A DNA stretch of 64,000 nt. Source: Paraspadella gotoi (Eukaryota; Animalia; Chaetognatha). The stretch lies in assembly GCA_051294375.1 (NCBI GenBank), contig JBJCIZ010000239.1:5723074-5787073 (forward strand). Reading direction: 5' to 3'. Under the pieces are notes generated by a model, which was not told the origin of the DNA, searched no databases, and saw only the letters and a list, made by a program, of their open reading frames with translations. The position numbers and the translations under genes are program-made. Positions 22,714 to 63,168 of the stretch are shown here, in pieces; positions within the stretch are counted from its first letter, which is position 1; every line of letters starts with the position of its first letter.

Positions 22714-22871
22714 GGGCTCTCTTTTCTGAGAGTGCCCCATTTCTGTTTGTATACAGATCTTTAACCTATTCTTAACCAATTAAGCATAACCTCCAACCAA
22801 AATTTTAATTTAAAAAAATTAACATAATTCCGAATTTAAGATGAAATGGGTTGTTTTGTGAAAATAAGTCC
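22714..22871. mobile_element. Short GG...CC TIR MITE, same TIR family as the element forming intron 51747-54867
   Basis: GGGCTCTCTTTTCTGAGAGTGCCCCATTTC ... GAAATGGGTTGTTTTGTGAAAATAAGTCC. Related ends at ~5821-5850, 7211-7240, 44168-44206, 49369-49405 and 62421-62452, usually beside GGGTTA/TAACCC-rich DNA. Confidence 0.55.
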
Positions 22872-24415: not shown

Positions 24416-24498
<83 letters not shown>

Positions 24499-25033: not shown

Positions 25034-25267
25034 TGAAGAGACAGTAATTATTGTTATGAGTTAGTGATAGAACCGTTCAATATAAGCAGTCCCTGAGCTT
25101 CGGATCAGGCTGTAACACCATGTTACAGGCGAGTTAAGCGCCCCGTCCCTCTTAACTGCCAGACGACCACCGGGCTAGAACCCCGGACCTTTGGGTTGGG
25201 AGGCGAATGACTTGCCTCCGGCACCAATGGCCGCTGATGAACGGTTGGTGGATTTTAGTCCACCATA
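25034..25267 (+). mobile_element. Family-C solo-LTR-like element (TG...TA, 4-bp TSD TATT) with internal tRNA-like cassette on the minus strand
   Basis: TATT|TGAAGAGAC...GTCCACCATA|TATT. The reverse strand reads GCGGCCATTGGTGCCGG...GGTTCTAGCCCGGTGGTCG. Confidence 0.8.
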
Positions 25268-25945
25268 TATTGTTTAAAAATTTATAGACGAAAGATGCTA
25301 TGGCCGTTTGTTTAAATCGTCCACACGTTTGAACAATGTCAGCCAAACGATGATAACTCGTGTGATAACGGAGAATTCAAAAGGGTTGTCAACGTTCATT
25401 TTAATGACAGCCACGAATTAGATAACAAAAATGATTATAACGACGAAATTAATGACACCAGCGATAACAACGATAATTTTAAGGACAGAGATAATCGAGA
25501 TGTCAACAATTGTTGTGATAACAACAACCATTTTAATGACAGCGACGAACTAGACGACCGTAATTTTTATGATGATGAGACGAAACGTGATCAAGTTACC
25601 GATGTCCATTTTGAAATCATTTTGACGACGACGACGACGACGACGACGACAATAACAAGGAATTATGTAATTTAACGCGATTTTCTCATTCATTTTTAGA
25701 TACTTAACTGTCCTCATTTGTTCGTTTATACTGCTTGTTTAATTTTTGACGCATTGTACACTTCTTCGTCAGGGGACCATGAAATTTGGCTTGGATTGAA
25801 AATTTTGATTGATTTTCAATATTTTCAGATTGACTTTACAATCGTTATTCGCCATTTTTTTTCTTTTTCTGCTCATGAAATAAATATTTTGAACGTCTTA
25901 TGTTGTTCAAATATTATTTTAAACCAATGTAAATTGTTCTCCTCC

Positions 25946-28135: not shown

Positions 28136-28384
28136 TGTGGCAGCAAGACTTAAAGCTGCCTCACTGCCTCAGCTTCGTCTCAATGGCTGAGCAGGCTAAA
28201 TCATCTCATTCCATCCGTGCGTCCCGGGTTCAATCCCTGGGTATCCCGGTTCTGGCTTAAATGTGACGGTGCCGGTATAAACATGCCAGTGACAGGAGGC
28301 GGTCACTGAGGGTCCGCAGCCCCTACGCCAGTTGGTGAGATACCCCGCGCCCCGGGTATCACAGGCTATCCTCCCGTTGCCATA
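28136..28384 (+). mobile_element. Family-A solo-LTR-like element with tRNA-like A/B boxes, TSD AGTT
   Basis: AGTT|TGTGGCAGC...GTTGCCATA|AGTT. TGGCTGAGCAGG is A-box-like and GGTTCAATCCC is a B box. Near-identical to 48960-49216. Confidence 0.85.
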
Positions 28385-28951: not shown

Positions 28952-29259
28952 CTCTTCTCACCGAAGAAGTGAAAAATATTACAGGATCCACAACAGCCAA
29001 TTCGTGAAGACCATTCGTAAACGCCGACCGACTGCAGCATCTCGGCTAAACGCGACCGCCGCCCGCCACAGCTCCGACCCGCCCTGGCGCCGCGGCACCC
29101 GTCCGACCGCCCGTAAGGATGACCATGGCAGCAGATGATTACAAAACCGGAAATGAAAGAAGAAAAAGGAGTATAATGTCCCGAATTCCCAGAGGGCTTG
29201 ATCCTCAGGGAGCTGAACGCGTGCGGCGGTTGTCAGAATAGGAAAAAAAAGCGCGAATA

Positions 29260-30548
29260 CTAGGAAAAATCTCGAACCCCATGAAGATGGCTAGTGAAAA
29301 CGTCCCTTTCTTGGGCCGCGACTGCCGGTCGGCCTCGACGAGACGACTTACGGCGCGTCTCGCTGCACTCCAAAATCGCCGCCCGGAGTTGACCGAGTCT
29401 AAAACTCCATGCAAAAGCGATTCGGTTGGGGTTTTCGACCCTTGGTCCGAATGCATGTCCCAGTTTTTGCATTCTTCGGGATTCGTCTTTTTGGTCTGTT
29501 TTGCTAGTTCGGCACGACTGTCTCGGATTCCAGCTTTCGGCACGGACGAGACGATCCCGGGGTCGTCGTTGTTTTTGTATGGAGTGCCCGATGTGACAGG
29601 GAGAAGGCGGCCTTATCTGTGCCTGACTGTTTAACGAAAAAATGAAAGGTTGTTTGACCGCCGCTCCGACCGCCGACGCCGCGGCCGCCGCCGCCGCGTA
29701 AGGATGCATGGCGCGATGATACAAAACGGAATGAAAGAAGAAAAAGAGTCCGAATTCCCAGGCGGCCAGGGAGCTGCGGCGCGGTTGGCGGGCCGAGTGG
29801 CGTCCCTCCTTGGCGGACTGGAACGGCGACGAGGACGACGACGGCGTCTCGGTCGACGCCTCGATGGAATCCTCCATCAAAAGTTTCGCGGTTCCATTTT
29901 TTGATTCTCGGGATTCGTCGTCGTCGTTGGCGTTGGATTCCAGGCGGACGAGGTCGTCGTTGGGAGGAGAAGCGGAATCGCCTCTGGAGATGAGGAGGAG
30001 GAGGAAGAGGAGGAGGAGGAGGAGGGGTGTTTTAAAAGAGGGAGTGAGATGAAATAGAAATTGGACGAAATCGGAGTTCCACGCTCCAATAGGTTTGATT
30101 ACGGTTGTACTCGTGATTTTCCGCAAAGTAGGTACCTTTGAGAGTCGATTTCGGAACCTGACGGTCACAAGCTGGTAGTGATATTCTATGAGCCACAGTC
30201 TCACGATATAGGTGATCTGCTTACGCCTTACGGGCGGGGTAAACTTCTATGCATCTACCCCCCCCTCTTTCATCTTTCTCTCTCAAGATTTCATCGACTT
30301 TCCTCAACGGACCTGGCGTTCTTCCAGTTGCAGAATCCCCATCCGCTCTTCCATTTGGCCATGCAAGCGAAGCCAAAGACCCAAGCGGCGACGGAATCCG
30401 CGACGCCGTCCAACACGTAGGCGATCTGCTGCTGTCGCTCGGACACGAGCGGCTCCGGAGCGGCGCTGCTGCTGGCGGCGCCGGTGACGCTGGTGGCGAC
30501 GCTGGACGCCAAACGACGCCGCGTCATCTCGAGACGTTGACGAGCGAC
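29260..30548 (-). CDS. Partial gene of unknown function (exons 30548-30313 and 29983-~29600); 5' part lost in a gap, 3' part noisy
   Basis: GC3-rich exons joined by a phase-2 GT-AG intron (..WKNAR|GDSASPPNDD..). Contains an HPYAAAAAAA tract. No domain recognised. Confidence 0.45.
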
Positions 30549-32178
30549 NNNNNNNNNNNNNNNNNNNNNNNNNNNNNNNNNNNNNNNNNNNNNNNNNNNN
30601 NNNNNNNNNNNNNNNNNNNNNNNNNNNNNNNNNNNNNNNNNNNNNNNNNNNNNNNNNNNNNNNNNNNNNNNNNNNNNNNNNNNNNNNNNNNNNNNNNNNN
30701 NNNNNNNNNNNNNNNNNNNNNNNNNNNTCTCTCATTACCGAATGATAAAGAGAAGCAGCCCCACCCATCTCCACGAGACGTTTGGCGACTTGAGGCAGAA
30801 GTAAGCGAGAAGGCAGAGGAGGACCCCGACTGGAACCAATCAAAGGAAGCAAGCAATCAGTCGGTCGATTCGAGGGAAGCAATCATCCAGTCGAGCGACC
30901 GATGAGTTTATTTCATAATGTAGTGAAAGCTTAGAACGAAACATTTAACGAAACTTCATCTTAGTATATTACAGAAATAAACTTTTGAAGTTCCTCTTTC
31001 AAATAAAATCAAAACACAACAAAACAAACCCCCNNNNNNNNNNNNNNNNNNNNNNNNNNNNNNNNNNNNNNNNNNNNNNNNNNNNNNNNNNNNNNNNNNN
31101 NNNNNNNNNNNNNNNNNNNNNNNNNNNNNNNNNNNNNNNNNNNNNNNNNNNNNNNNNNNNNNNNNNNNNNNNNNNNNNNNNNNNNNNNNNNNNNNNNNNN
31201 NNNNNNNNNNNNNNNNNNNNNNNNNNNNNNNNNNNNNNNNNNNNNNNNNNNNNNNNNNNNNNNNNNNNNNNNNNNNNNNNNNNNNNNNNNNNNNNNNNNN
31301 NNNNNNNNNNNNNNNNNNNNNNNNNNNNNNNNNNNNNNNNNNNNNNNNNNNNNNNNNNNNNNNNNNNNNNNNNNNNNNNNNNNNNNNNNNNNNNNNNNNN
31401 NNNNNNNNNNNNNNNNNNNNNNNNNNNNNNNNNNNNNNNNNNNNNNNNNNNNNNNNNNNNNNNNNNNNNNNNNNNNNNNNNNNNNNNNNNNNNNNNNNNN
31501 NNNNNNNNNNNNNNNNNNNNNNNNNNNNNNNNNNNNNNNNNNNNNNNNNNNNNNNNNNNNNNNNNNNNNNNNNNNNNNNNNNNNNNNNNNNNNNNNNNNN
31601 NNNNNNGCGATAAATTTAGGGGTCCCCTTAATAAAGGGATAATCGCCGAGAAGGATTTCATTTGAAAAAATGTTCTTCATGCATCCTTTTATAAACCAGC
31701 AACTTTTAAAATATTATATTAATTTTTACTGTTTCGAATGAATTGATTGATTTATTGCCAAATTCGCTGGAAGACCCTGTAAGATAAAACTTTTTTGTTT
31801 TAAATGAACGGCATGAAAATAAGAAACTATGAAATTGGATAAATATGAGACAATATTTATTAGAACTTATGTATTATATAGAAATTCGTACTGAGAAAAT
31901 AGTCAAGTAACCAACTTTCTCGAATTAAAGCTACATTTTTTAATTATTCATTTAAACAAAGTTTGAAAAATATTTTCATCAACGATTTTATTTATTGATA
32001 TACGGACATGTTTCGACTCTTTATTTTCGAGTCTTCATTGTTTAAATCTCTACACTCAACGAAGCTGAAAGGATTAATACAATGGCTAATTATTCATTTA
32101 TACTTTCTCAAACAAAACGTGATTTTTATATATTGAAAATGCGTGGCTGATTAAGATTAATATCTTCTAAGATTGTTG

Positions 32179-32855: not shown

Positions 32856-33090
32856 TATGGTTGACTAAAATCCAACAATCGTTCATCAGCGACCGTTGGT
32901 TCAGGAGGCAAGTCATTCCCCTCCGCAACCCAAAGGACCGGGTTTCTAGCCCGGTGGTCGCCTAGCAGTTAAGAGGGCTGGGGCGGTTAACCCGCCTGTA
33001 ACACGGTGTTACAGCCTGATCCGAAGCCCAGGGACTGCTTATATTGAACGGTTCTGTCACTAACGCATAACAATGATTACTGTCTCTTCA
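32856..33090 (-). mobile_element. Family-C solo-LTR-like element
   Basis: Reverse complement of 25034-25267. Flanks ACAA/ACAC match at 3 of 4 positions. Confidence 0.85.
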
Positions 33091-41284: not shown

Positions 41285-41514
41285 TGTCTAAGATAAAGTT
41301 AATGTAGAAAAGAGAGAGAGAAAGCTGAAAGAGAGGGAGAGAGAAAGAAAGAGAGATTAACCAGAGAGAGAGAGAGAAGACGAGAGAGAGGCAGAGAGAA
41401 GAGAGGAGAGAGAGAGCTGAGAAGAAAGAGAGATGCTGCCTAAGATAAAGTTAATGTAGAAAAGAGAGAGAGAAAGCCGAAAGAGAGGGAGAGAGAAAGA
41501 AAGAGAGATTAACA

Positions 41515-44500
41515 TCAAGTTCCATCCCGACGCCTCTCCACTTCCCCCACGACGGAGATCAACGCCTCCGGCTTCAGCCAATGACGGGATCGTCCCCCAA
41601 CGCTGCGCCGTCGTGCAGAGAAGCGTCAGGGAGGCGGCGCGGGCGTTCCTAACACCCACGCCTTCCAAGATGGCGTCCTTAGATAGAGGGCGGCGCCGCT
41701 GGTGGCGCTACAGTAGGTCGAGACCTCCCCGATCGATGGATAACGACAATCGAAAGTCGGTCTGAAAAAAAAACAAGTTTGAGCAAACAATGTCGAATCT
41801 GCCTACGATAATTTCGCGGTAATCAGTTAAACAGATGATAATCACGATAATTCTTTGTGATCTCTACAGATCATAACAGATCATAACAAAACAAATCATA
41901 ACAGACTTATTAATAAATCGATGAAAATATCTATCAATCAATTGAACAATAAGTAAAAGAACCTGTGGCTGCGCTTTTAGCGGATTAGACTGAACTTTTA
42001 CTGCAGCACAATTAATATTTTATAATTTAAAAAAATATTTTATCAATAAATATAATATTTTAAACATTTTGTTCATTATTTTTTCTTGCATAATTTTTTT
42101 TTAATTTACAAAATTTTTTTTAACTTGCATTATTTTTTCAACTTATTCAGCCAATCCATCATTTTATCTCAGTGAGAGAGAGAAACATTAAAATTTTAAA
42201 AAAATTCAAGTAAAAGTAATGTTTGCTTTTTTCAATTTAAACTCATTTCCAATGGCACGATTCCATCAAAACTTCAGTTCAATCAGTTCAATCACCTACT
42301 TTCCCACACGCACACTAAATTTAATCTCTATCCATTTATCTAATTATGAGTAATTAGAGTAATTATGAAGTAATATAAGCAAAAAGATTTAAGTAAACCT
42401 GACTTATGATTTTTTCCATTTAAACTCATTTCCACTAGTACGATTCCATCAAAACTTTATATCCAGCTCAATCACACAGGTTCCTACCCAACCACAAAAT
42501 TTCATTCCAATCCAACCATCCAATCACAAGTAATTGGAGTTATTTGCTAGGGTGGGACAGACGGACTGAAGAGAAAAGGCCGGGACCGACGGAGATGGCC
42601 AGATTTGACCCGTTCGACCGATTGACCGATCGACCGGACCGGGACTGACCTGACTCTCTCTCCTCTCTCCCTTTCCCTCTCTCTCTTTTTTTCTATCTCT
42701 CTCCAAACCTTACCTGGACAGACTTTGACAAAACCAAGATCTGTGGATAAGGCGCTACGTGGGCTGAAGAAGACTATCCGTAACTTCTATAACCCCCTCT
42801 AGCAGCCATGGAACGGGTCCCTGGGCTTGGAACCAGGCTTGAGGGTTTGCCATGCCCCCAAGGCGGCTTACGGCCGTCCTCACGCTTCCCGCAGGGTAGG
42901 TACCGGGTTGGGATTGAACCTGGTACCTAGTGGTCATGAGCTGATGGCTGATTCTAGGCGGGGTGAACCTAGGCAATGCCCGACTACAGATCAGATTCAC
43001 TGGATCACTCTCTAGAACGCAAACTACTTTCTTACAAAGTTTTCTACTACGTTGTTACTGAAGATTCCTGATTCCTGATTTCTCTACGACATTTGATTCC
43101 TCTTTGATTGATCTCAATTTTTTCTACGGATTTCGTCTCGTCTTTTACAATTTATTATTTACATTTCGAGCTTCAGTTACATAAAACGTTTTGGGATTCT
43201 TTTCGTCAAGACTAAGTTGCGGCCAAGTGGACCATTCTCACCTCAAGAGGCGCAGAGAGTCAAGCTTCTCTACACGGACGGACATCTTTTTTTTTTTTTT
43301 TGCATAATTTATCATAATTCGATATTCTGACAAGAAATAAATTAATGACCGACAATATTGAGGATGTGGACCGACGGACCGACAAAGTGGATTATAGAGC
43401 CGACTAAAAAAATAAAATCAATTAAAGTTAAATACCTACTTCCATTGTTGATACAATTGGATCAAAAAATAAAATAACACAATCTTAAAAGTATAATAGT
43501 AGTTAAACAACATCATTGCAACTTTCAAAAATAGGAAGATCATGAAATCTATGTACCAGATACACAAACGAATGGAACAAAACAACTTTTTTGCTCAAAT
43601 TTTAAATCTTTTTGATTAATAGAATTAAAGTCAAAACAAAGGAGAACTTTATATTAGTCAGTCTCTGTCAGTCGTAGAGAATTGTTTTAACACCAGTAAA
43701 TATTGTTATCGATATATGGCATCTATCATATATCATCAATTCATCATTATGATAAAGATCACACACTTTACACTCTTGCTTTTTATGTCCCCAGACGTCT
43801 AAAAAACTAAAACCTTATTAAAAAAAAAAAAAACAACACAATTTTTTTCCCCTTTTCAACCTGGATAAGGTAAATACGGCCTCGTTGCTTGGCAACACCA
43901 TCGCGGCGTCCTCCAATCGCGGCCCGAGATTCGGCAACGGACGCAGTGACACGAGATCCACGTCGCAAGGAAACGGCGTCGCGCGTTTCACCGTCAACGC
44001 CGCCGGCGTCTTAGTATCGGCCTGGTCAGGGATTATTAGGTTATTAGGGTTATGGTTTTAAATCCAAAATTGAGAATTAGGGTTTGGATCATAAAGTAGG
44101 TGAGGGTTAGAATAGATATAGATTAGGATTTAAAAAAATAGGGTTAAATCTAAGGGATTATGGTCCAGAAAAGGGCGCTTTTTTTTAAAAAAAAAAGAGA
44201 GAGCCGCAAATAGAACGTACGAACATTTTCTTTTGATTGATTGACTTAATTGATTGATTGTTTTATTGATTTGGTTATTTTACTGATTCGATTTGATCAG
44301 ATTTATTTACTGATTCGATTTGATCAGATTTATTTACTGATTAGAATCTATCAGATTTATTTACTGATTCAATTTTATCAGGTTTTGTTACTGATTTGAT
44401 TTGATCAGATTTATTTACTGATTCGATTCGATGAGATTTATTTACTGATTCGATTCGATGAGATTTATTTAGTGATTCCATTCGATGAGATTTATTTACT

Positions 44501-45647
44501 GATTCGATTTGATCAGATTTATTTACTGATTCGATTCCATCAGATTTATTTACTGATTCAAATTGATCAGATTTATTTATCGATGGATCGACATCAAAAC
44601 AGCTTCCTGTTCACCGCGCGTTTTGCAGTAAAGAAAACTTCCACGGGCGAATTGAGGCGTCGACGGAGTTGATGAGCGCCGACAGAAAGGAGCGGAATCG
44701 CTGGAGCCTTTGTCTCATCCCTTCCGCGCTCCTCCAAGGACAAGTCGTACCGAAGAGTCGAGAGAACATTGTCCTCGACGCCCTCTCCCATCCCGCGGGA
44801 GTCGTCGTTATGCAGGCGCCGATCCTGCATCACCTCCAGGCTGCCGTTGTGCTGCGACGAGGCGCCCTGAGGCTGCGCGGACAGCAGCGTCAAGCGTCTT
44901 CTGCCGCGGGCGCTGATTTGATCTTCAATGAACGCCGCCGATGACATCGGGTAAAAGTTGGCCTGGATGGAAAGCCACAGACCGAAGTTGAAATTATAAA
45001 AAGACCGTTTCATCCAATGTGTTGCGCCGCAGTGACTTTATTTTTATGTGTATTTCTTGTGAAAAGACATGACATGACGTGACATGACATGACTACAATA
45101 ACTTTTTTTGCCTGTGTTTTTATGACACGCACTGCATCAGAATTTCATTTTTTATTTGTTATAGTTTTAGGATTAGGCGTTTAATGCTAAGGGGGAATGG
45201 ACAGACGGACGGACGGCTGGACGGGCGGACTGATGGAAGGACGGACAAGACTTCATTTTTTTGCAGTATTTATCATAATTCGAGTTATTGATATGATAAA
45301 AATGATTTACCGACAAGATTTTTGGGTGGGACCTAGACGAACCCGACAAAGTGAATTATAGAGTCGGAATCTGCTGATAAGCAGATCCGACTAAAAATTT
45401 TTTAAAAAAAAAAAAAAACGTTTTCACTTCTCCCAACGCACAATTTACTGACCTGAATCGGGAGTTTGGCCAATCGTCGTCGCCTCATCATCGCCAGGAC
45501 CTTGGCGTCAGTGAAAAAGTGGGAGCCAGAGTCGATATCTGTATCGATGCGCATCACGGGCTCGAGATTGGTGAATCTCTGTATGAAGTTAAAGTCTTTA
45601 ACTCCAATATAATAAATAATAATAATTAATAATAATAATATAATAAT

Positions 45648-45683
<36 letters not shown>

Positions 45684-47283
45684 AAATAATAATAATAATA
45701 ATAATAATATTATAATAATAATATAATAATAATATTTATATAAATATTAATTTAATTTTATAATATAATATAATAATATTAATATATATATAATAATAAT
45801 AATAATTTTTATAAATTATATTAATGTACCCAAATATACTAATTTACTACTAGCTGCTATTTTTTTTTAATAAGATTAGTTTGTTTTTTATTAAAAATAT
45901 GTCTAGGGTTTAAATTAATTTAATGTCAATGTTATACAAAGTTTTATATTTTAAAAAAGATTTATAGTTTAAAAATTTATTCCTTAAAATATTCAATTTT
46001 TTTAATTTAAGAATTAAATTTAATTTAATTTATTATCAATTTGTTTGAATTTATTGTAAATAATGTTTCTCTTCTTAATTTTAGCAAATTAGATCATAAA
46101 ATTGTCTGCTATATTTCTGTTTTAAAGCTATTTTCGTTAATTAAAAATTGCCTACTTTTATTCAGTTAACTACTAGGTAAACAAACAAAAAATTGTCTAT
46201 TACCTATAAGAAAATATCTTTACCTAAGTTCTATCTTCCAACCTCTTTCTTTTGTTATCATTCTATCCAACCATCCTTCTCTCCCACTATCTTTTTATCC
46301 TTCAACCCTAACAAACCCTTTGAGCAAAACGCGGTTGGTGATGCGAAGGGATCGACGCAACACAGAGTCTTCGCAGGATTGAGGCGATAAAGAGGACAGC
46401 TCGCCGTCCACCCTCCGCCCTCCCACCATTTCTACAAAGTGCTCGATCATGGGAAACACGACTCTGACCGTCGTCACCAATGGACCCGCAATGATCACGG
46501 CCATCAGCGGTGAAGAACTTTTATTTGCAAGGCCCGAAGGTTGGAATAGATACGCGCCGCCTCTGACTGACGGATACCACAAAAACCTATAAGAGATAAA
46601 CTTCTCAACTTTTGTCTGTCTGTCTGTTTGTCCGTCCGTCCGTCCGTCCGTCCCACCTTAGCAAAAAACACCAATTAATTGTGATTGGATCGATGGATTA
46701 GAATTAGATTTTGTGTGTGGGTAGGGAAGTGTGTGATTGATCCGGATATGAAGTTTCGATGGAATCGTGCGAGTGGAAATGAGTTTAAATGGGAAAAACA
46801 AAAAAATATATTTCACTATTTGAATGCCAATTACTCGTGAGTGGATGCGGCGATTGACTTGATATTTTGTATATGGGTAGGAGAGTGTGTGATTAAGCTG
46901 AAAATCAATTTTTGATGGAATCGTCTGAGTGGAAATGAGTTTAAATGGAAAAAGCAAAAAACCTGTTTCACTAATTAATTATGCCTTTTTTCCTTTTATA
47001 ATAAGTGTAAATGCAAGATGTATTAATTAATCAAATATTAGTCAGTTTATTAATCAATTAGTCAATTAATTAATCAATAATTTATTAATCAGTCAATTAA
47101 TCAATCAGTTAATTATTCAATCAATCAATTTATTTATATATTAATTAATTATTCAATCAATCAATTTATTTATTAATTAATTAATTATTTAATCAATCAA
47201 TCAAGTCAATCGTTATCGGCATTATTGTCATCGTCGCCATCATCGTTGCTTTTGTCGGGTCAAGAGCGTTTATATTGTTTGGT

Positions 47284-47333
<50 letters not shown>

Positions 47334-50300
47334 AAACGAAATAAAAACATGATGTTGCGATTGCAAAATGATAACATGCACAAATGCGATGCCTAATTTT
47401 ACGAGTTGCAAAATGATGCAAAATGATGCAAGTTGAAAAAATGAAGCGAATTGTAAAAATAATGCAAATTTAAAAAATTATGTGAGTTGAAAAAATGATG
47501 TGTGGAAAAAATGATGCGAGTTGAAAAATTCATGCGAGTTGAAAAAATGATGCGAGTTAAAAAAATTTTTACAAAAATTGTGATTTATCATCTGATTAGC
47601 TGATTACCGCTTAATTATCGTAGGCAGATCCGACATTGTTTGCTCAAACTTGTTATAAAAATTTTATTAAGTTTTAGATTTAAAAAAAAAAAAATTCAAA
47701 TCATTTTAGTTACGTTATGGGATTGTTCGTGTAGTCTTCTAGAAATAGAAGGAGCATCTTTATAGGTTGTTTATGCTCATTGTATATCTGTAGTATATAA
47801 ATTAACATTCTGTTACTGCAATTTACGATCTCTTTCAGTAGTAATTAATATTTTGTATTCGTCAAGTAGGTATATTAATTAGTTCAGCTAAGTGTGCTAT
47901 TATTCAGGAACCCGGGATTACTCCCTCTTACAAACCCTATTTGCGCCACGAGATTCGACCGTCCCTCCGACGTCGCTACGATCATTCGTCTCAACAGCCC
48001 CCGGGGCCAGTCGAATTCGGCCGCTAGACAACCGTTGGTCAGCGTGATGCGGCTTCTGACGGGCCAACGGTTCAGGGATATGGGAAACTCGGTTGATTTA
48101 TTTGTGAGTTTTTCGTGGCCGACATCGTTTAAAACGGTAAGAGCAGCTAAGTGAAACTTGGAAACGTTCTCTCTCGATGAGGACGTGATAATGGAATGAA
48201 TGTACAGCCTCTTTATTTCAAAAGGTTCCATCTCTGCTTCGAAGACCAACTCATAGAGACCCGCCTGAGGTTTCCCTAGATTTGACCAGACCGGGTCGAT
48301 CTGGTGGCGCAAGATCTTCGCCGTCGTCTTAACTTCGACGTCAAACCGATTGATCCGCAGTCGAATTATCTCCCGTCGTGCAAAGGGAAGCGCGTTGGCC
48401 AATATGATAACAGTAATAGAGGGAGCCAAGCCTCGGATGTCCACGATGACGGGTTCCACTCCCACCGACTTTTGATTGGCCAAAAGGGTCACTCGAAGCG
48501 GCTCATCAACATCGCCTCCTTCCCGAAAAGTCCTTGATTCCATAAGCGACCAAACGGCCCCCACCAGCGCCCTCTGCGCCTTGACGAAACCTTCACAAAG
48601 GCGTCGCGCAATGTCGGCGGCATTGTGTTCCTTGGAAGTGCCGGTAACATCGTCGTGGTGTTGGAAAAGGGCGAGCTCTTGATGGGCGGAGCGGAGATCT
48701 TGAAATTCGCGGACCTGTGGTCGGGTAATGCAGCCAGTTCACCCCGCCCTTAAGCATGACACCTTCGGTTATGACCCCGATTGTTTATTGAGTAAATCTC
48801 ATAAGGTACCGGCATCGATACCCAAAGGTAACTAACTACCCAATGGGAAGCGTGAGGACACCCGGAATCCAACCAAGCCTGGTTCCAAGCCCAGGATATA
48901 TGTTCCTTTACTGGTGACTGGTGAGGGTCGTTAAGCGAGTTAAGGATGATTTATCCATGTGTGGCAGCAAGACTTAAAGCTGCCTCACTGCTGTCCGTCC
49001 TCAGCCTCGTCTCAATGGCTGAGCAGGCTAAATCATCTCATTCCATCCGTGCATCCCGGGTTCAATCCCTGGGTATCCCGGTTCTGGCTTAAATGTGACG
49101 GTGCCGGTATAAACATGCCAGTGACAGGAGGCGGTCACTGAGGGTCCGCAGCCCCTACGCCAGTTGGTGAGATACCCCGCGCCCCGGGTATCACAGGCTA
49201 TCCTCCCGTTGCCATACATGTACCTTTTTGTCACGGCGTGAGGGAGGACCGTCGCGGGCGCCGGCAGCGAGAGTGAAGAATACATCGGCTGCGCGGAGGA
49301 GGGACTCGAGGCGGCGGCCGAGGACTTTCCAAGCCATTCGGGAAGTGAAGTAGCTGCGGAAGAAGAATGGCCTTTTTTTTTTTTACAAAAATGCCTCATT
49401 TCGTCTTTAATTTAGATTTAGTTCTTCAGCATTAACCTTAAAAGGCTAAGGATTTAATTAAAGATTTGGTTAGGGATAGGTTAAGAGTAGGGGGAAGTGA
49501 AAGTTTAGTTTAGTTTAGCAGTTATATCTTGAAAACTATCCTATTGGTGAATACTAATCTGTAATTATTTTTTTTTTTACAAATATGGTAGCCTGGTCAG
49601 CTTATTTTATATATAGTATATTATTACCCTTATATAATATTAAAATTTCAAAATAGTTTATTTTTAAATTCTAAGAACAGATTCAGATTCCTTGTTAAAA
49701 GTTGATAAAGGAAAATATAAATCTTTTTCAAAAATTATGTCATTAAAAAGGTTAAAATTACAAAAAACTATATTTTGAAACTAAAAATTGAAAATCGGAG
49801 TCTTAAATATAGTTTTTTACATTTTTGACCAACTTAATGAAAAATTTTTTAAAAAAGAATTATACTTTCTTTTATCAACTTTTTGCAAGAAATCCAAATC
49901 CGATCTTAAATTTAAAAAAATTGTATTTTAAAATTTTAGCTTATTATACAGGGTTCGGACTTAAAACTTACCCCCATAAGAAAAATTATTATTTACTTTA
50001 ATTATTTGTACTTAATGATATATCTGAAAAATTTAGTTTTATCAATTATTTGATTGGTCATTTTAGTACATGTTTACCTTATGTCAGCTACTCGTTTATG
50101 AAGTATACCTTACTTAGGACCCTTCCAAAGATGAGTAGACGATATGAAAAATTCTTTACATTTTTGCTACCATTGTATATTCAATAATGGGTCAAGATTG
50201 ATGTAATTCCGGTTACAAGTACTGTTGAGTGTTACATTTAATTCGCCCCATACTGCAATACCCAAATGATTTTAGATTTTGCATTATATGGGGCATAATG

Positions 50301-53300
50301 CCCTGAGGCCAAAATTTAGAGAAATTATATTAAAAAAAATCTTACTTTATACTAGTAGCTGAGCATATTATATTGTATAAATAATATAGATATACCTCAA
50401 ATTACTGCAGCATACTGCAGCTTTAATTTTCTTTTAAGAAATAAAATTATAAAGTACTAACTGATTTATATTGTGTGCTATACAGTTTTGGCTTATGCTA
50501 ATAATTTGATTTTTTGGTTGAGAATTCCTTTTAAGGTATTTTAATAGCGCACAAGGTACAAATTTTTTATCTCATTAACTACAAAAGTTAGATGAAAGTT
50601 ATCATTACAACTTTTTGACATTTTAATAATTTATCTATGATAATTAACAAAAACTATAAAATTTAATGAATGATGATGATGATGATTTTTTAAGGGTTTT
50701 TCAAATTTTAGCCCATTTATCATTACATTTTTTTAAATTTGTAGTAATAACCTTTATCTAACTTTTTAATCTTTATCAGAATTCATTTAAAAAAATTTAA
50801 ATTTCCTAAAAAATTTTTTAAGCATTTCTTATATATTGTTAAATATTAATATGCTTCCATGAGGAAAATTAATTTAATCAAAATTTAACATCATAAGTCA
50901 ATTTGGTTGTAAAAAGACAAAATACTTTTATCGCAGACTTTTTCATATTGTAAAAAAATGTTAAATTCTGGCCCGCCTTACTACTTACCCACTCCAATAA
51001 TCGTCGTCGAAATCACTGTATGTGAAGAAATCTCCGCCAAATATCTTCAGCTGAGAAACCTCCCCCAAGTCCTCGTCAGCCATTTGAAAGTATTCCGACA
51101 GTGTCCCGAACTTAGCCGTCGCGCCCATTTCCTCAGAGCGGGCATTGATATAATTGAAGATCTTGTTCCAGTTTTCAAACTGCCGATCAAACTGAGATGA
51201 TTGAATGAAGCGAAAATCATCGCCAAATATCACCAGCACAACATTGTGCTTAAACCACAGCGACTTTTTTCTAAGTTGATCAAGCAGCTTGATTGCCTGA
51301 TCATGAATGTTTACAGGCCCAATGGTTGGTGCTGAATTTGGTCTCCAAAAATCATATTCTACGCAAATCCAATAGTAAGGGCCGCAAGAATGTTTGATGG
51401 TGTAGGTATAGAGAGGGTTCAATGAAACCCGAAGATCGTCAATGCCCTCAACATCCCACTCTTGGCGCCAAACAAACTCAGCGTCTGCATTTTTATCCAA
51501 AAACTCTTTTATCTTGTAGTGGATTCGATTTATGAAGGAACGCTTGAGACCAGCTAATGATCTAATCCTAGCCGCTGTCGCTGAATGACCAAAAGGGTCA
51601 ATGTTAAAGCTCGTCTTTGGCGCAAATCCCAATTTTTGTCTGAGAAAAAGATGGCCTTCCAGCATCTGGTCAATGAGCGAGTAGACTGTGGGGTTAGCTT
51701 CGTCCGGCATTACCCAACCTCCACCAACGATCTCAAATCGGCCCTCCTTTATTGGCATGATTTTTTTTAAAAGCGCCCCCCTGTTTGTTCCATAATCTTT
51801 AAATCTATATTTAATCCTAATATCTAACCCTAATATTTAACTACCCCGTGTCCGTTCGAGAGTGACACCAAAAAAATCTTTACTATACTTTAAATATTTA
51901 GTAAACATAATTCATAAGTATATCATTAGTTGCAGAACTACTTGAAGTTTGTTATGTATAAGTTTCATTTCGTTTTTAATTTACTATTCTTTGTTTAATT
52001 TTTTATCTAACACAGTAAAATTAGCAAAAAAAGACAATTTTAGGCGTGTTCTTGATTGAATTTTAAAAATATTTTATATCATAAGAAATCCCTATTAATG
52101 GTCTAATCAATGAATTATCGTAATGTTGAGTAATTTTTCAGTAATGATTTTTCATTGATTTTTTTAATTGTTAATCTTAAGTTTTCTTTATACAATTCGT
52201 CCAATTAGAAAAAAATGCTATCCTGACCATGTTCTTGACTGTTTTGAATAATTATTTTATATTGTAAGGATTCCCAGATAATTATTAATTTAATGGCGTA
52301 AATGAATTTTAATAATTTTAAGTATTTAATGAATAATAAATTTATAATGATTTTCTTTTTTTAAAAGATTCAGTTCTTTACTGAAGATGAAATTGGATGA
52401 CCATATTTAAGGAAATATCAAATTAATCTTATGAAATTAAAATATAATAAACGTCAAGTACTTTGCTACAGAATGAAGAAAAAAAATTTAAAAAATATTT
52501 ATCCAATGAGAAATGGTACGCATTTTTTTGGTGTCACTCGCGAACCCTACCCTGAATCCCTCAACCTGTACAGTAGGGTGGATTGATGAAAAGATTGAGT
52601 GATTGAACATTATTTTTTTGCTGCCTATGGACATGTAAATAATAAATTTTAAATCATTTTAAAAACAATTTTAACATAACATATAGTAAATTCAATTATT
52701 TATGTAGTAATATCCTTATAAAATCGTTAAATTTTAAAATTTTTATTTTTATTTTTAAGAACAGATTTGGATTCGCCGTAAAAAACTAAGAAACTTTTAT
52801 AAAATATGTCATATGATATTTTAATGTTTGGATCACAAAAAATGACTAAAACATTTTAACATATATAAGTTTCTACAACAAAGAATAAAAAAGTCATAAA
52901 TTTTAACCTTTTTTCCGGTTTTAAACGCTGATGATGACAGAATTTTTGATAAGATGTTTTATATTTTTGATTCAACTTTTCATAAAGAATCTGAATCTTT
53001 ATAAAAAGTTTTTAAAAATTTTTTTTAAAAATTTATTATTTTATAAGAATATTACTACAAATTTATTATATTTTACTATTCTGTTCCCGAGACAATATGA
53101 ATAAAATATTTTTTGTACTAGTTAATCATAATATCTCACATCTAAATATCCTTGTTCGATCATTCAAATAAATTTTTTTGTTCTTGAGTGTTCCACTCTA
53201 CTATACAGAACCCTAATCCCTAATATAGTCCCCAGCAAATTCCTAACTTTAAACCCTATCCATAATTTTTAACCTTATCGCCTAACTTAACTTTAGACAT

Positions 53301-53873
53301 AACAAGTTTGAGCAAACAATGTTGGATCTGCCTACGATAATTAGGCGGTAATAAGCTAATCCGATGATAAATCACGGTAATATTTTCTGACTTTCATAAC
53401 AAATTGTAACATAACAAATTATAACAGACTTCTTAATAAATCTATAAATCAATTGACCTATCAATCATTACCATTAGCTGCGCCAATACCAACTTGCATA
53501 ATTTAGTCAAATTGCATAATTTGGTAATTTTGCATAATTTTGTCAATTTGCATAATTTGGTCAGATTGAATAATTGCATAATTTAATTAAGTTGCATTAT
53601 TTGGTAAACTGGTATAATTTGGTAAACTGGCATAATTTGGTCAACTGGCATAATTTGGTCAACTGACATAATTTGGTCAACTGGCATAATTTGGTCAACT
53701 GGCATAATTTGCTCAACTGGTATAATTTGGTCAACTGGCATAATTTGCTCAACTGGCAAAATTTTGTCAACCGGCATAATTTGCTCAGCTGGCATAATTT
53801 GCTCAACTGGCATAATTTGGTCAACTTGCAGAATTTGGTCATTTGAATAATTTTGTCAACTTCCATAATTTGG

Positions 53874-53906
<33 letters not shown>

Positions 53907-56900
53907 CAGAGAGAGATAGAGAGAGGGAAACTTTTAAAAATTAAAATAAATGTGTCTTTTAGTTTTCTAATTTAAACTCTTTTCCACTTTCATTTCCTTT
54001 TATCTATCAAATTTTTAATGAATTTAATAATTATGAGTAAATATAAGTAAAAATACTTCAAGTAAATATAACTTTTGTTTTTTTCATTTAAACTCGCGCG
54101 ATTTCTTCGAAACTTTATATCCACCTCAATCATACACTTTCCTACCCACACAGAAAATTTCATTCCAATCCAATCCAATCACGAGTAATTAAAGTTTAAT
54201 GAAAAGTTGGGACGGACCGACAGACAATGTTCTGATATGATAAAAATTATTTACCGACAAGATTTTGGGGTGGGACCGACGGACCGACAAAGTGAATTAT
54301 ACAGTAAGGCGTAGTAAAATTTCTAAATTTAACTTTAATTAAAATTTTAAAAGTGAGGAACGAACAACATTATACTAATGAACATTTATGTATAAAAAAA
54401 ATTTTAATAAATTTTACAATTTACGCAGTAGGCTATATTTATACTAGTACTAATGCAATAAATGTTAAAATTTTAAAACAGTTTTTTCTCAGATTTTTTT
54501 GCAGATTTGTATTCGTCATAAAAAGTTGATAAAAAGAAATATAACTCTTTCTGAAAAATTGGAAAAACCTATATTTTAAGCTGAAAATTCAAATTTTATA
54601 TATTAATATTTAATTTTTAACCAACTTAATGAAAGAATTTTTAAAAATGATTTATATTTTCTTTTCTCAACTTTTGACGAGGAATTCAAATCTGCAATCA
54701 AAATTAAGAAAAGCCTATTTTGAAATTTTTCGAATATATAAAAATACTATTCTAAGTTTTGATTCACTATCCTGTAGAGTCGAGATCTGCTGATAAGCAG
54801 ATCCGACTAAAAACTAAATCAACCTAAAATTTAGGCTGAAATGGGGCGCTTTCGGAAAATATGATCCCTTGATTAAAGTTTTCATCATGTCGCGCATCGT
54901 CGTGTTTGCAATATCCCACCACCAGGAAAGGTAAATCGACTCGGCCCAGATGAAAGTCAATTTTTTATATTGATGGAGTTTGACAACCGCGTTGGTGATG
55001 ACGTGAAACGAGTCCTCGAAAGCAGGGGGCGTGTAAAGAAATGGCGACTCCTTCCCTCCCCACCACAAATGATTTGGTGGGCTGCCTTTAAAAGGCAAAG
55101 TGATATCAAGACCCCTCTATTAGCAAAGAAAATTGCTATAGAATAGATCAAGTAATTATAGACTTAAAATTAACATTATTTGAGTCGGTATTTTGCTTTC
55201 CCATGGAATCGCGATTTTAAAATTATCAAATAATTTTTTTTTTTATGTAGACTGATAAAAATTATCTCTCTCTTAACGGCCTCTTCTTTTTGGTTTTTCT
55301 TTGTTTGCGCTATACATTGGAACCATGAAAACAAAAAAAGTTGACCGGAATATGACTCACAAGAGCGATCAAATGATAACTAAAAAATTATAGGAACTTT
55401 TCAGATAAAATCGATTTTAATCATATATTTTAGATAATTATAGTATAAATTTTTAAATAGTATAATAGTTTTTATCATTATTAATATTTATTTCAATAAT
55501 ATTATTAATAATAACATTATTATTATACTGATTGAATTTAATTAAACTTGCTTATTAACCTATTTATTCGTAAATTTTTTTGTTATTTGGCTTAACCTTA
55601 ACCCTATCTCATATTAAATGTGGCCAGTCAGTTTAGCCTTTTTAACTTAAAAAAGTTTTATTAAACAAACTTTTATAATATTTAATATAAGAGGCTAATA
55701 AGTAATAATTCATTCCAATCCATCCATCCAATCACGAGTAATTGGAGTTTTTTTTTCTAAAGTGGGACGGATGGACGAACGGACGGACAGACAGACGGAC
55801 GGACATCGTTCTTTTGTATAATTTATCATAATTCGATGTTCTGACATGATTTAAGTGAATGCCCAACAAGATTGAGGGGGCGGACCGATGGACCGACAAA
55901 GTGAATTATAAGCAGATCCGACTAAAATATTGCTTATATTGAACGGTTCTGTCACTAACACATAACAATAATTACTGTCTCTTCATTGGTGAGCCCGACT
56001 TCCGAACAGAACAGCAACAACAACACTTTCAGGCGACATGCCTCAACCTGGCGATGCACTTTCCGCCAACAACAATTCACAGAAGAGACGCAACAGACTT
56101 CTTCCTACAGGAGGGGGGGATGTATGGAGGACTAAAATCCACCAACCGTTCATCAGCGGCCATTGGTGCCGGAGCCAAGTCATTCGCCTCCCAACCCAAA
56201 GGTCCGGGGTTCTAGCCCAGTGGTTGCCTAGCAGTTAAGAGGGACGGGGCGCTTAACCCGTCTGTAACACGTTACAGCCTGATCCGAAGCTCAGGGACTG
56301 CTTATATTGAACGGTTTTGTCACTAACACATAACAATAATTACTGTCCAATGTACTGTCCAATGTATAGAGCAAACAAAAAAAAAATTAGAAGAGGTTGT
56401 TAAGAGAGAACTAATGTGGTTATTGATTTTTGGTAGATCTATTGATTATCGCAGGATAACAGTATGAAATTGGTACAACCAAAATAAAAATTATCTATTC
56501 ATTTAATAAATAAGCTATCTTGTCCCTGACTTTGGACAGGCTTTGGTAGTTTAAGGCCTCCATCACTCTTACAAGATAATGACTTGGCAGGTCCTTGCAA
56601 GCTTTCAATCAAGACTCTCTCACAGTCTCGTTTATTCACTCCCAAAGTACCTGGCTTCCCTATCAATGAAGTGGTATAATATTTCAAAGAATGTTTCAAT
56701 TGTATGAAAAGACCACTCTCTCAAGTATTAGATCGGGGAATACTTATTGTACTCCGCACTAGCATCAAAATACAAGGAGCTGAATTTTATGATATTGGTA
56801 CAACCATTATAAAAAATATCCATTTATTTAATAAATAAGCTATCTTGCCCTTGATTTTGGGCAGGCTTTGGTGGTTTAAGGCCTCCATCACTCTTACAAG

Positions 56901-57475
56901 ATGAGATTTTTTTGTGGAGGTTCTCAACCCCTCTACACGCCCTGCGTCAGACCCTCTACACGCCCCTGCCTCGAAAAAGTGTTCCGCGGCCGTCTTGTGC
57001 CATCCCGGGTCCGTGTGTGAAAAAGGCACGAGAACGATACGCAACGGGTCATCCCGCCGTCGCGAATCGCTGTAGTTCATGTCAACTTTGTCCCAGTCTT
57101 TATCTCCGCCCCCGCGTCCAGGCATTCGAAGTGACTCGTAAAGTCGAAGGCTTGAAATGTCGACGGAGGCTTTGCGTAGATCGTTGGAGCATTTCATCGA
57201 TTCCTCCTAGACCATTGAGGAAATTTATTTGAAGCAAATAGACCGGGCATTGTAAACTACTCTTTACTGTATATGCTAAATTGAGGTCCCCTTTAGGCTT
57301 TACTCTTAGTTACCCGTTTGGCGACCTTGGTTAAACTGGAATATCCGTCATTGGCCAGAGGAAAATTCCATAAGCAATACCAGTAGACTAGGAGGAACAG
57401 TAGGAAGGTGAGAAGCACCCAGCGATAGTAAATCTTGATTCGGAGGAGCATTAAAACGAATCTTGAGCGAATCAT
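41515..57475 (-). CDS. MAN2A: Golgi alpha-mannosidase II (GH38, MAN2A-like); exons 57475-57314, 57206-56970, 55014-54868, 51746-50989, 49353-49224, 48714-47936, 46586-46317, 45576-45453, 44962-44615, 44021-43861, 41761-~41515
   Basis: N-terminal type II anchor. Motifs VPFSHTDPGW, FIWAE, EIVGGGWVMPDEA, IDPFGHS, RIHY, GDDFR, YWSGYFTSR, LFQHHDDVTGT, GAYLF, QANFYPM, DRRLHNDDSRGMGEGV. The last exon has apparent indels. The symbol is family-level. Confidence 0.92.
42742..42988. mobile_element. Family-B solo-LTR-like element, intact, TSD GATC
   Basis: GATC|TGTGGATAAGG...CCCGACTACA|GATC, 247 bp. The reverse strand carries GGTTCAATCCC and GGTTCCAAGCCC T-arm-like hairpins. Confidence 0.88.
44280..44580. 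repeat. Minisatellite, ~27-bp unit
   Basis: TTTACTGATTCGATTTGATCAGATTTA repeated. Confidence 0.9.
45010..45396 (+). mobile_element. DINE-1/HINE-like Helentron-associated repeat
   Basis: GGAC/AGAC microsatellite, core TTTATCATAATTCG...GACAAAGTGAATTATAG, and 3' hairpin AGTCGGAATCTGC-TGATAA-GCAGATCCGACT plus an A run. Further copies at ~42240-42570, 43270-43410, 46615-46970, 54030-54300, 55710-55925 and 60590-60950. Confidence 0.65.
46588..47932 (-). mobile_element. TG...TA element (TGTAAGAG/CTCTTATA), TSD GGTT, coextensive with intron 46587-47935
   Basis: Minus strand: ATA G GGTT TGTAAGAG ... CTCTTATA GGTT TTTG TGG. Confidence 0.75.
48716..49220 (-). mobile_element. Family-B-related LTR-like element filling intron 48715-49223, with family A nested at 48960-49216 (TSD CATG)
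   Basis: Ends CCCGACCACA|GGTC on the minus strand. Shares GGAAGCGTGAGGACA and CAAGCCTGGTTCCAAGCCCAGGA with 42742-42988. Confidence 0.82.
51843..52554. mobile_element. Nested MITE
   Basis: GTTCGAGAGTGACACCAAAAAAAT ... ATTTTTTTGGTGTCACTCGCGAAC inverted repeats around an AT-rich interior. Confidence 0.7.
52569..53205. mobile_element. Nested Tc1/mariner-like MITE
   Basis: TA-CAGTAGGGTGGA ... TCCACTCTACTA-TA. Confidence 0.5.
53490..53878. repeat. Minisatellite, 18-bp unit
   Basis: CATAATTTGGTCAACTGG, about 20 copies. Confidence 0.92.
55022..56969. mobile_element. TIR element (GCAGGGG(G)CGTGTA.AG) with perfect 7-bp TSD TTTCGAG, coextensive with intron 55015-56969
   Basis: Minus strand: TTTCGAG|GCAGGGGCGTGTAGAG ... 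CTTTACACGCCCCCTGC TTTCGAG|GAC. Confidence 0.85.
56123..56347 (-). mobile_element. Family-C element (tRNA-like cassette on + strand, ~56156-56227); partial second copy at 55931-55986
   Basis: Reverse complement of 25034-25267. Confidence 0.85.
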
Positions 57476-60572: not shown

Positions 60573-61386
60573 TTTTTTTATTGCTTAAAATTGCAGATTC
60601 CGACTCTATAATTCACTTGGTCGGTCCGTCGGTCCCACCCCAAAATCTTGTCGGTCAATAATTTATATCATATCAAAAGGATCATTATGATAAATTATGC
60701 AAAAAAAAAATGATGTCCGTCTGTCCATTCGTCCGTCCGTCTTTCTGTAGGTCCGTCCGTCCCCCCCTTATCAAAAAACTCCAATTACTCGTGATTGGAT
60801 CGGGAGAAACGTGTGTGATTGAGCTGGATATAAAGTTTCGAATAGTTTATCATAATTCGATGTTCTGTCAATGATTTAAGTCAATGACCGACAACATTGT
60901 TGGGGGCGAACCGACGGACCGACAAAGTGCTGATAAGCGGATCTGACAAATAATATTCCTTAACTTCCAAGAACGACGGAGACTCCTCGCTCTCCCGCGG
61001 GACTTTTGCTATAAAAAGTGAAAGTTTTCTCGAAATATGTCTTCTCTTATAAAATGGTCTTTTTTTCTGTAATCGGGTATTGTCAAACTAACTAATGCTT
61101 GAGCAAAAAAATGTCAATACCCTGAGTAAATACAAGGTGAATATTATTAGAAACCAGCGGTTTTATAACATTAAATTTGTCATTTTTTTTTCATTCAACT
61201 TGTGATTTTTCTATTTGTAATTCAAACACAACGAAAGAAACTGATTCTCCTCCTCCTCCTCCTCTTCCTCCTTCCTATCCTCTTTGGTCTTTATTTTCTC
61301 CTTATCTATCCCCTTCTTCTATCCCCTTCTTCTATCAAAACAAATCTTTTCCCCTTGGCCTCTATCTTTAAGAGATATTCTTCCTC

Positions 61387-62033: not shown

Positions 62034-63168
62034 TTAATTAATTAAGGGCAAATATTCATGCTTGTCCATGGGCCTCATGTAGTCCTTTCCCAGCAACACC
62101 TGCAACATCTCGACAATCTTCTCGTCCTCGCACGGCACGTGCACCAGGAAACCGTGGAGATCGGACGAGCAGACCCGGACGGTAAAGTCGTAGGACAGGA
62201 CGCCTGTACTTTGCGAGACCGTGCCATGGGGTCGCCCCGAGGCCACGAGCCAAACGTCGGTGGACACGTTCGCGATTCTGTATCTGTAGAAAAATCCGTT
62301 GTTCCCGTATTCGGGGAGATTCGGGTCTTTTTCTTCGACGCTGTAGTCTCTGGCTTTGACATCGGATCGTGAGGCCCCTAAGCGGATCATCTCTGGAAAA
62401 CTGGGTTGAGAAAGAAAATAGGCCTTGTTTTGCCAAAGCACCCCCCGTTTCGTCTTAAATACGAAATTAAGCCAGTTTCAAGGTTTAAGGATTAAGGTAA
62501 AAGTTAGGGTTAGAGATCAGGTCGGGGATTAGGTTAAGGATTAGGGTTGGGAGTTAGGGTCAAATAATAAGTTAGGTTTTGGGATTAAGGCTGGGGATTA
62601 GGGTTAGGGATTGGGTTATTGATTAAGGCTGGGGATTAGGGTTAGGGATTGGGTTATGGATTAAGGCTGGGGATTGGATTATGGATTAAGGCTTGGATTA
62701 GGTTTAGAGATTGGGTTATGGATTAAGGCTGGGTAGGGATTAGGTTATGGTAAAGGATGGGGATTAGGGTTAGAGATTGGGTTATGGATTAAGGCTGGGG
62801 ATTAGGGATTAGGTTATGGATTAAGGCTGGGATTAGGGTTTGGATTGGGTTATGGATTAAGGCTGGGGATTAGGGTTAGGGATTGGGTTTTGGGTTCAAT
62901 AAAACTTTCAGGTTAAACGTTAAAATAAAAATCAAATAAAGAGATGATGTCACAGATGATGCTACAGTTAGACAAAGCTATCTCACTCACTCTTATATTC
63001 TCTCTCTCGCTCTCTCTATCTATCCTCCACTCCCCCTTGCACTCCTCTTACTCACGCTTCGACTCGACTGTATCCAAAAAAGTCCACATCGCTATCTTCG
63101 GGCAAAATGCTGCACTGACGCCACCAACCGAGCAGAGTCCCGCTGCGGAGGAAAGGACGAATACGAAC
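62034..63168 (-). CDS. Fukutin-like / LicD-family phosphotransferase, last two exons (63168-63056, 62400-62034); 5' exons lie in the terminal gap
   Basis: PFLRSGTLLGWWRQCSILPEDSDVD matches the LicD/fukutin GT.LGW.R...IP..DxD motif. VCSSDLHGFLVHVPCE...LLGKDYMRP matches the fukutin C-terminus. The intron is phase-2 GT-AG. Confidence 0.8.
62480..62897. repeat. Interstitial degenerate TTAGGG-like array inside a MITE
   Basis: GGATTAGGGTTAGGGATTGGGTTATGGATTAAGGCTGG units following a GGCC...CCCCCCGTTTC TIR-like end. Confidence 0.7.

Follow-up and report, generated by a model that had tools for sequence, protein, structure and literature searches.

The route from transposable element (TE) to intron has already been published for elements with terminal inverted repeats (TIRs), for solo long terminal repeats (LTRs) and for Helenus elements. 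Here we describe a 64,000-nucleotide stretch of the genome of the chaetognath Paraspadella gotoi (GCA_051294375.1, contig JBJCIZ010000239.1, positions 5,723,074 to 5,787,073; hereafter the window, numbered from its first letter), in which several introns of a Golgi alpha-mannosidase II-like gene probably arose by this route. Among the closest described systems, introners formed by TIR elements, including miniature inverted-repeat transposable elements (MITEs), carry one splice site and obtain the other from the target site duplication (TSD), as reported for Micromonas, Aureococcus and dinoflagellates (PMC9860276, bioRxiv 2020.10.14.339549, PMC11282704). Gozashti's criteria for introners include at least four similar introns in unrelated genes and, for non-canonical splice sites, RNA evidence of exact splicing, and the survey method of PMC9860276 and PMC12130899 requires families of similar, recent introns. 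In the former paper, which covers 835 genomes of animals and plants, introners are reported for two animal groups. The latter adds a sea urchin family and places about 12% of its classified families among LTR elements including solo LTRs, with Copia solo LTRs in switchgrass; a keyword search of its table returned three Helenus-labelled rows, from the fungus Paxillus and the dinoflagellate Polarella, one of them finally classed as Helitron. Helenus elements themselves are TRIMs (miniature retrotransposons with terminal repeats) with a tRNA-like promoter and, in animals, 4-bp TSDs (PMC10886601). Further animal cases are the MITE introns of Fritillaria borealis (PMC11282704, PMC13326754) and the introns with GA or GG donors of the copepod Eurytemora (PMC5714493), and the published animal cases in these sources are few: copepods, Fritillaria and sea urchin.

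The mannosidase gene occupies 41600..57475 on the minus strand, with a start codon at 57475 and an uncertain 3′ end, and was modelled with 11 exons and ten introns (numbered 0 to 9). Its exons match, in this order, the Pfam profiles of the N, middle and C domains of GH38. The closest solved structure of the gene product is Golgi mannosidase II (E = 1.4e-55, compared with 5.6e-17 for lysosomal mannosidase), and an N-terminal anchor is predicted. The predicted product is of the Golgi alpha-mannosidase II class within GH38. Across the ten exons preceding the last one, the ten-intron model gives 1038 stop-free codons.

A sequence-only reading of the window had proposed that introns 1, 2, 4 and 5 of this gene, and probably intron 6, run exactly from one TSD copy to the other. 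The coordinates that it gave for these five introns are exact to the base: removing the five stretches yields all five junction peptides that it had quoted and leaves an open frame. In an alignment with 12 MAN2A homologues, among them one sequence (P0031) truncated close to junction 6, no gap occurs at junctions 1, 2, 5 and 6, whereas junction 4 falls in a variable loop; positions 71 and 72 of the Pfam GH38N profile are continuous over junction 2. The boundaries were evaluated with a score that combines target duplication and anchored inverted repeat, calculated for 16 introns (the ten of the mannosidase gene and six of a neighbouring protein 4.1 gene) and compared with two null sets: 240 cross pairs of real junctions, and 3977 random pairs that were required to have a G before G(T/C/G) at the donor and an AG before G at the acceptor. 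On the evidence set out below, introns 1, 2, 4 and probably 5 are likely to be single transposon insertions into coding sequence, which would be spliced out exactly. Exact removal is expected because in each case the element plus one TSD copy starts with G(C/G/T) and ends with AG.

The clearest cases are introns 1 and 2. Intron 1 (55015..56969, minus strand, GC-AG, phase 0) is composed of a TIR element at 55022-56969 and one 7-bp TSD copy at 55015-55021; the exon-side copy lies at 56970-56976 and the 7-bp repeat is perfect. Directly inside the TSD there is a 16/17-nt inverted repeat, with one mismatch and one homopolymer gap. The GC donor corresponds to the first two bases of the TIR and the AG acceptor to the end of the TSD, and the intron contains later nested insertions. 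Intron 2 (51747..54867, minus strand, GG-AG, phase 0) is a MITE with TIRs at 51754-51779 and 54843-54867 plus one TSD copy. Its TSD (51747-51753) matches the exon copy (54868-54874) at six of seven positions, an 8-bp reading matching at six of eight being equally good, and its TIRs of 25 and 26 nt are imperfect with a perfect core of 11 nt. Again the first two bases of the TIR constitute the donor, here GG. Once at least four nested insertions are set aside, the host element of intron 2 measures about 270 nt. The boundary scores of these introns (19 for intron 1 and 18 for intron 2) were reached by none of the cross pairs (0/240) and none of the random pairs (0/3977). Ends related to the intron 2 TIR occur at several other sites in the window, all outside recognised exons, including a short element at 22714..22871 (plus strand). 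No transposase open reading frame (ORF) was recognised in intron 1 or 2, and a superfamily (hAT, P, Merlin or Mutator) was therefore not assigned.

In both introns the GC or GG donor is the sole frame-neutral choice within 18 nt. It is very unlikely, in our view, that the GC and GG donors are unused and that splicing instead takes place at canonical GT sites within or next to the elements, with short in-frame scars left behind. Frame-keeping GT-AG pairs do exist within the searched range (39 for intron 1 and 10 for intron 2), but they would change at least 11 residues (intron 1) or 25 residues (intron 2) in a part of the catalytic domain where none of the 12 homologues has an indel. The GG donor of intron 2 has AG at the exon end and A at position +3, the same pattern as in the RNA-verified GG donors of copepods (PMC5714493).

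Exact removal of introns 1 and 2 would follow the geometry of the TIR/MITE introners, in which the 5′ splice site is carried by the element, the 3′ site is co-opted from the target and the length of the mRNA is unchanged. Those introners form families of similar introns. Here, by contrast, each of the two introns is a single copy and they belong to different families; the TSD is of 7 bp, the donor of intron 2 is GG, the host is an animal, and nesting has expanded the introns to 2-3 kb. The family table of PMC12130899 does not contain the string "7bp TSD", but it also gives lengths numerically, so that the absence of such TSDs is not proven by it. The recent, position-specific introns with non-GT donors of Fritillaria, Eurytemora and sea urchin resemble the present ones. 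Unlike in those animals, however, 14 of the 16 introns examined in the mannosidase and protein 4.1 genes are GT-AG, giving no sign of a reshaped spliceosome. The GG donors of Eurytemora are not traced to TE ends in the accessible text of PMC5714493, whereas the GG donor here is part of a TIR.

Intron 4 (48715..49223, minus strand, GT-AG, phase 0) is filled by an element of a different kind, which we call family A. The element (48716-49220, antisense to the gene) and one 4-bp TSD copy make up the intron, and only 4 nt of it lie outside the element. The TSD copies (48712-48715 and 49221-49224) match at three of four positions; GT is provided by the TSD, and AG is composed of the terminal A of the element and the first G of the TSD. 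All four family A copies that retain the 5′ end (48716, 42988, 63243 and 3179) have it in the same register, and their flanks are unrelated; a common 3′ end is present in two other copies. A complete copy at 42742..42988 (minus strand), which starts with TG, ends with CA, and has a perfect 4-bp TSD and a box B motif, defines both ends of the family and is itself an ordinary insertion within intron 9. In intron 4, the 5′ end of the family is found one base in from the acceptor, and three bases in from the donor there is a match of 7/9 to its 3′ end. Intron 4 has no TIR, and its boundary score of 5 is at background (103/240); we nevertheless consider it TE-made because the 5′ end of family A, known from three other copies with different flanks, fixes its boundary at the acceptor, together with the match to the 3′ end and the duplication.

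Intron 5 (46587..47935, minus strand, GT-AG, phase 2) probably has the same geometry and origin. A candidate solo-LTR-like element at 46588-47932 is flanked by a perfect 4-bp TSD (46584-46587 and 47933-47936), with inverted ends matching at seven of eight positions, and the host element measures about 300 nt excluding a nested repeat at 46613-47656. Its score of 10 was reached by 8/240 cross pairs and 38/3977 random pairs, which is suggestive only, given that 16 introns were tested. For intron 6 (45577..46316, minus strand, GT-AG, phase 2), a TE origin is unsupported. It opens with the same motif as intron 5, its acceptor lies two bases past the supposed element end, the direct repeat matches at only 2-3 of 4-6 positions, the score of 3 is at background (191/240), and an alternative GT-AG pair exists that adds two codons. 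We prefer to read intron 6 as an ordinary gain at a proto-splice site.

The same explanation could be extended to introns 4 and 5, leaving only introns 1 and 2 as TE-made, with the repeats and TG/CA ends of introns 4-6 due to chance or to later filling by TEs. Short direct repeats are indeed frequent at ordinary junctions here, with 3-4 nt at several introns, and the scores of introns 4 and 6 are at background while that of intron 5 falls within about the top 1-3%. This extension is made unlikely by intron 4, in which the family A element leaves free only 1 nt at the acceptor and 3 nt at the donor, in exact 4-bp TSD geometry. The five introns of the sequence-only reading are thus reduced to introns 1 and 2, which exceed all null pairs, intron 4, which is identified by its family ends, and a probable intron 5, intron 6 being at the level of chance. 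Element ends coincide with intron ends without spill into exons for introns 1, 2 and 4; this is suggestive for intron 5 and not the case for intron 6. The TE share, put at about half of the ten introns, amounts to three solid cases and one probable case. The proposals that at least two unrelated TE classes fill whole introns, and that the TSD and the terminal bases of the element supply the splice dinucleotides, hold: TIR DNA elements occur beside LTR-like elements with a TG start and a 4-bp TSD. Its extension from this one gene to intron gain throughout the lineage is not supported.

The identity of the LTR-like elements was examined through their relatives in the window. A family B element of 257 nt (48960..49216, plus strand) with a perfect 4-bp TSD is nested at the end of the intron 4 copy of family A; it carries box A and box B motifs of a tRNA-like promoter, and a second copy at 28136-28384, 96% identical, has its own 4-bp TSD. 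A TRIM-like structure of family C (55931..56347, plus strand), nested in intron 1, shows the 3′ end of an LTR (to 55985), the start of a primer-binding-site (PBS)-like sequence, an interior of about 135 nt, a purine tract at 56109-56120 and a second LTR from 56121, which bears a tRNA-Gly-like stretch; both LTRs are truncated. Single LTR-like copies of family C are also present at 25034-25270 and 32856-33090, and a core motif is common to families A and C. Box B is found in the family A copy at 42.7 kb, and ARAGORN with a relaxed threshold gave calls in the copies at 42.7 kb and 16 kb and none in the intron 4 copy, which has lost box B; the program also made 12 calls over the window, which are most likely noise, and an Rfam search of positions 1-58000 returned no tRNA match. 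Helenus TRIMs (PMC10886601) are comparable in several respects: families A, B and C have a TG start, a length of about 230-260 nt and box B, families A and B have 4-bp TSDs, and family C has the same order of LTR, PBS, interior, polypurine tract and LTR. They differ in that no two-LTR copy of family A was found in the window and that the intron 4 copy lacks box B. These features fit Helenus, and the intron 4 element is a likely candidate for a Helenus-like solo LTR.

In using a whole LTR-type element as intron, intron 4 and probably intron 5 resemble the solo-LTR and Helenus introners of PMC12130899, but in contrast to the Helenus-labelled cases the host here is an animal and the TSD, which is needed for both splice sites, is of 4 bp. 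A keyword search of open-access literature found no description of such an LTR route with GGTN targets and 4-bp TSDs in animals, which does not establish its absence from print. Ginger DNA transposons, whose TIRs of 40-270 bp flank insertions at CCGG/CCGT or AT-rich targets (PMC2836005), have TGTNR ends and a 4-bp TSD in common with introns 4 and 5. Identity with Ginger was excluded on the basis of the inverted ends of introns 4 and 5, which are at most 8-9 nt, and their different targets. Within 64 kb, each TE family concerned forms one intron; the other copies seen are ordinary insertions, located within introns or away from recognised exons.

A further feature is common to families A and C. 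Their core resembles the conserved end of the twister ribozyme (about 17 bits in family A), at 42821-42884 (minus strand), 48844-48894 (plus strand), 16212, 33013, 56276, 25111 and 21100, and the copies in intron 9 and in an intron of the protein 4.1 gene are sense to their host genes. No ribozyme is mentioned for Helenus in the accessible portions of PMC10886601. A separate repeat of about 115 nt, at 56525-56567 (minus strand) with copies near 56867, 28040 and 23627, gave a Twister-P5-like match of 30.6 bits (E = 0.005). Both matches fall below the cut-off of 37.6 bits, and a Twister-P5 ribozyme is claimed for neither. Should the cores be active, the elements would combine a tRNA promoter and a ribozyme in one TRIM.

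The intron positions were compared with those of homologous genes. A scan of metagenomes yielded 18 homologous loci, none closely related over a whole exon; three intronless loci were left out, and several of the remaining 15 intron-bearing loci are near-duplicates. Among the loci covering each site, the position was uninterrupted in 14/14 for intron 1, 15/15 for intron 2 (in a test window narrowed to avoid a conserved intron 10 nt upstream), 10/10 for intron 3, 7/7 for intron 4, 5/5 for intron 5 (one locus having an intron three codons away), 3/3 for intron 6, 2/2 for intron 7 and 1/1 each for introns 8 and 9. None of the nine alignable intron positions is therefore used in the covering intron-bearing loci, and the positions of the TE introns are not ancestral. 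Conversely, the mannosidase gene of the window has none of the ten recurring intron positions of its homologues. Wherever a comparison is possible, these recurring positions match the isoform breakpoints of mammals, and presumably also the human exon map.

In a tree of 31 rows chosen from about 280, whose bootstrap had not fully converged, the window protein, on a long branch (0.94), formed a clade with ORFs P0129 and P0163 from a representative search (support 100/99), and no named sequence was sister to this clade. The sister-clade ORFs P0129 and P0279 (52-53% identical; P0279 belongs to the P0129 cluster) read unbroken across the intron 2 site, and P0129, P0279 and P0163 all terminate at the residue where intron 3 begins. 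The stop position suggests that these ORFs are genomic read-throughs, which would mean that intron 3 is older and probably common to the sister-clade ORFs and that intron 2 came later. A close empty site is available for intron 2 only. When longer proteins were searched with exon 3, the relatives among the matches listed (120 of 227) were all at 41-45%.

We simulated neutral substitution in 2000 runs, with indels ignored: all 1038 codons remained stop-free in 32%, 10%, 2.5%, 0.4% and 0 of the runs at 1, 2, 3, 5 and 9% divergence, respectively. In addition, all insertions into the coding sequence have splice-compatible ends, which only about 1-5% of sites allow; for the 4-bp TSD geometry, 40 GGT sites in 3114 coding nt mean that about 1% of random insertions would fit GGTN. 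Together, the stop-free codons and the splice-compatible insertions favour a working gene. The opposing view, that the gene is dead or dying and the insertions (above all the GG-AG one) are unspliced in exons, with splice-like ends as a by-product of TSD and TIR bases, seems improbable to us. The three or four independent insertions all read G..AG with one TSD copy, at least four later insertions are nested in intron 2 of a gene that is still stop-free over 1038 codons, and no exon is broken by an insertion without splice-compatible ends.

Several observations weigh against our interpretation, and the first three are also what the dead-gene view would lead one to expect. Intron 2 pairs its GG donor with an A-rich acceptor that lacks a pyrimidine tract. 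In the last exon, homologue matches pass from one frame to another near 41690, next to an irregular GA repeat; this frameshift may be an assembly error or real. The protein is divergent, as its long branch indicates: of 182 columns invariant among 11 homologues, it retains 129 and has changed 53. The drift test would have little power for young insertions, as shown by the 32% survival at 1% divergence, and the sole direct proxy for age, two mismatches in 22 TSD positions, bounds the age of the insertions loosely. The intron 4 copy of family A is only about 63-64% identical to the other copies, and its 3′ end deviates at the last two bases and adjoins a deletion. For intron 5, no second copy of the element was found in the window and the corrected p is near 0.15; introns 5 and 6 both have a competing GT four bases downstream. 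The nature of P0129, P0279 and P0163 as genomic read-throughs is deduced from where they stop, and none of 631 candidates matched as a relative of exon 5, so introns 4 and 5 are without a close empty site.

Indel errors in the assembly are plausible: apparently noisy, duplicated or uncorrected sequence adjoins N gaps and GA repeats at 29000-30550 and 41450-41700. These gaps and locally noisy stretches, and the perfect TSD of intron 1, would be compatible with insertions that are young polymorphic alleles or products of assembly, with an uninterrupted allele elsewhere in the species. Such an explanation is barely credible in view of the multi-layer nesting, the decayed TIR and TSD of intron 2 and the presence of four separate sites on one haplotype.

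Under the interpretation that we favour, of TE insertions spliced from a working gene, the lineage would first have lost the conserved MAN2A introns, by retroposition or by wholesale loss. Intron 3 would have been gained before the split from the P0129/P0163 lineage and intron 2 after it; the order of the other TE introns relative to this split is not datable. Introns 1 and 2 would have arisen when TIR elements generated 7-bp TSDs ending with AG, the first two bases of the element serving as GC or GG donor and the TSD as acceptor. In introns 4 and 5, an LTR-type element with TG...CA/TA ends would have duplicated a 4-bp GGTN site, so that GT comes from the duplication and AG from the last A of the element and the first G of the duplication. 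Removal would restore the original codons in both geometries. Once tolerated, introns of 250-500 nt would have been enlarged by nested insertions.

The remaining introns of the gene are all GT-AG. Intron 0 (57207..57313, 107 nt) and intron 3 (49354..50988, phase 2, at a non-ancestral position) are without TE signature, and introns 8 (44022..44614) and 9 (41762..43860), the latter containing the complete family A copy, are without a TE signature at their boundaries. Intron 7 (44963..45452), also at a non-ancestral position, has a borderline score of 9 (15/240 and 80/3977). These introns, like the gene, are on the minus strand. An abundant repeat with a GTCC/GTCT microsatellite, which we take to resemble DINE-1/Helentron-type elements, is present at 41772-42569, 45176-45397, 46613-47656, 53299-54305, 55709-55927 and 60593-60962; the end of the intron 9 copy continues into the T tract of the acceptor.

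A protein 4.1/FERM gene (14177-18068, minus strand) probably extends to about 9200. A search with one of its exons gave eight hits, of which seven are from named animals. All six of its examined introns are GT-AG, three with weak GTT donors, and one of the six shows a possible TE-like boundary. This intron, at 14832-15152, has a score of 14 (0/240 and 4/3977), an imperfect direct repeat of 7-8 nt and an inverted repeat of 10 nt that pairs a purine-rich with a pyrimidine tract and may be due to chance; it is possibly an older TIR intron in which a GG donor has turned into GT. ORF P0122 spans the first two intron sites of protein 4.1 and ends just past the third. A GC-rich ORF at 62040-62420 (minus strand) had no Pfam match, nor did an Atlas search with the ORF as 62037-62477 give a match; its upstream boundary, at about 62420, is abutted by a terminus akin to that of the MITE in intron 2. 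An exon at 24292-24417 (plus strand) matches the secreted phospholipase A2 family PF05826 (E = 1e-8). A short ORF at 7297-7458 (plus strand) has a hydrophobic start and six cysteines, and no Pfam match.

The three or four TE introns are old enough to hold nested repeats and are located in a gene stripped of its conserved introns. They give the impression of introns gained opportunistically from ordinary TE families, at least three in number and unrelated to each other; a dedicated introner family is not indicated. The GG donor of intron 2 has a direct TE source. They also suggest a testable rule, namely that a TG...CA element together with a 4-bp duplication of GGTN makes an exact GT-AG intron. 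Quite tentatively, the lineage may gain introns genome-wide from whichever TE hits a compatible site, Helenus-like solo LTRs (Gypsy-dependent, with a tRNA-like promoter) at GGTN and TIR MITEs with GG or GC donors that drift to GT. If so, screens based on similarity between introns would miss TE introns that are old, nested and single-copy, TE-driven intron gain in animals would be far commoner than published counts suggest, and the origin of GG donors could be traced to TEs. One gene alone is a good example of a known process; a genome-wide pattern would give TEs a wider role in the gain of animal introns.

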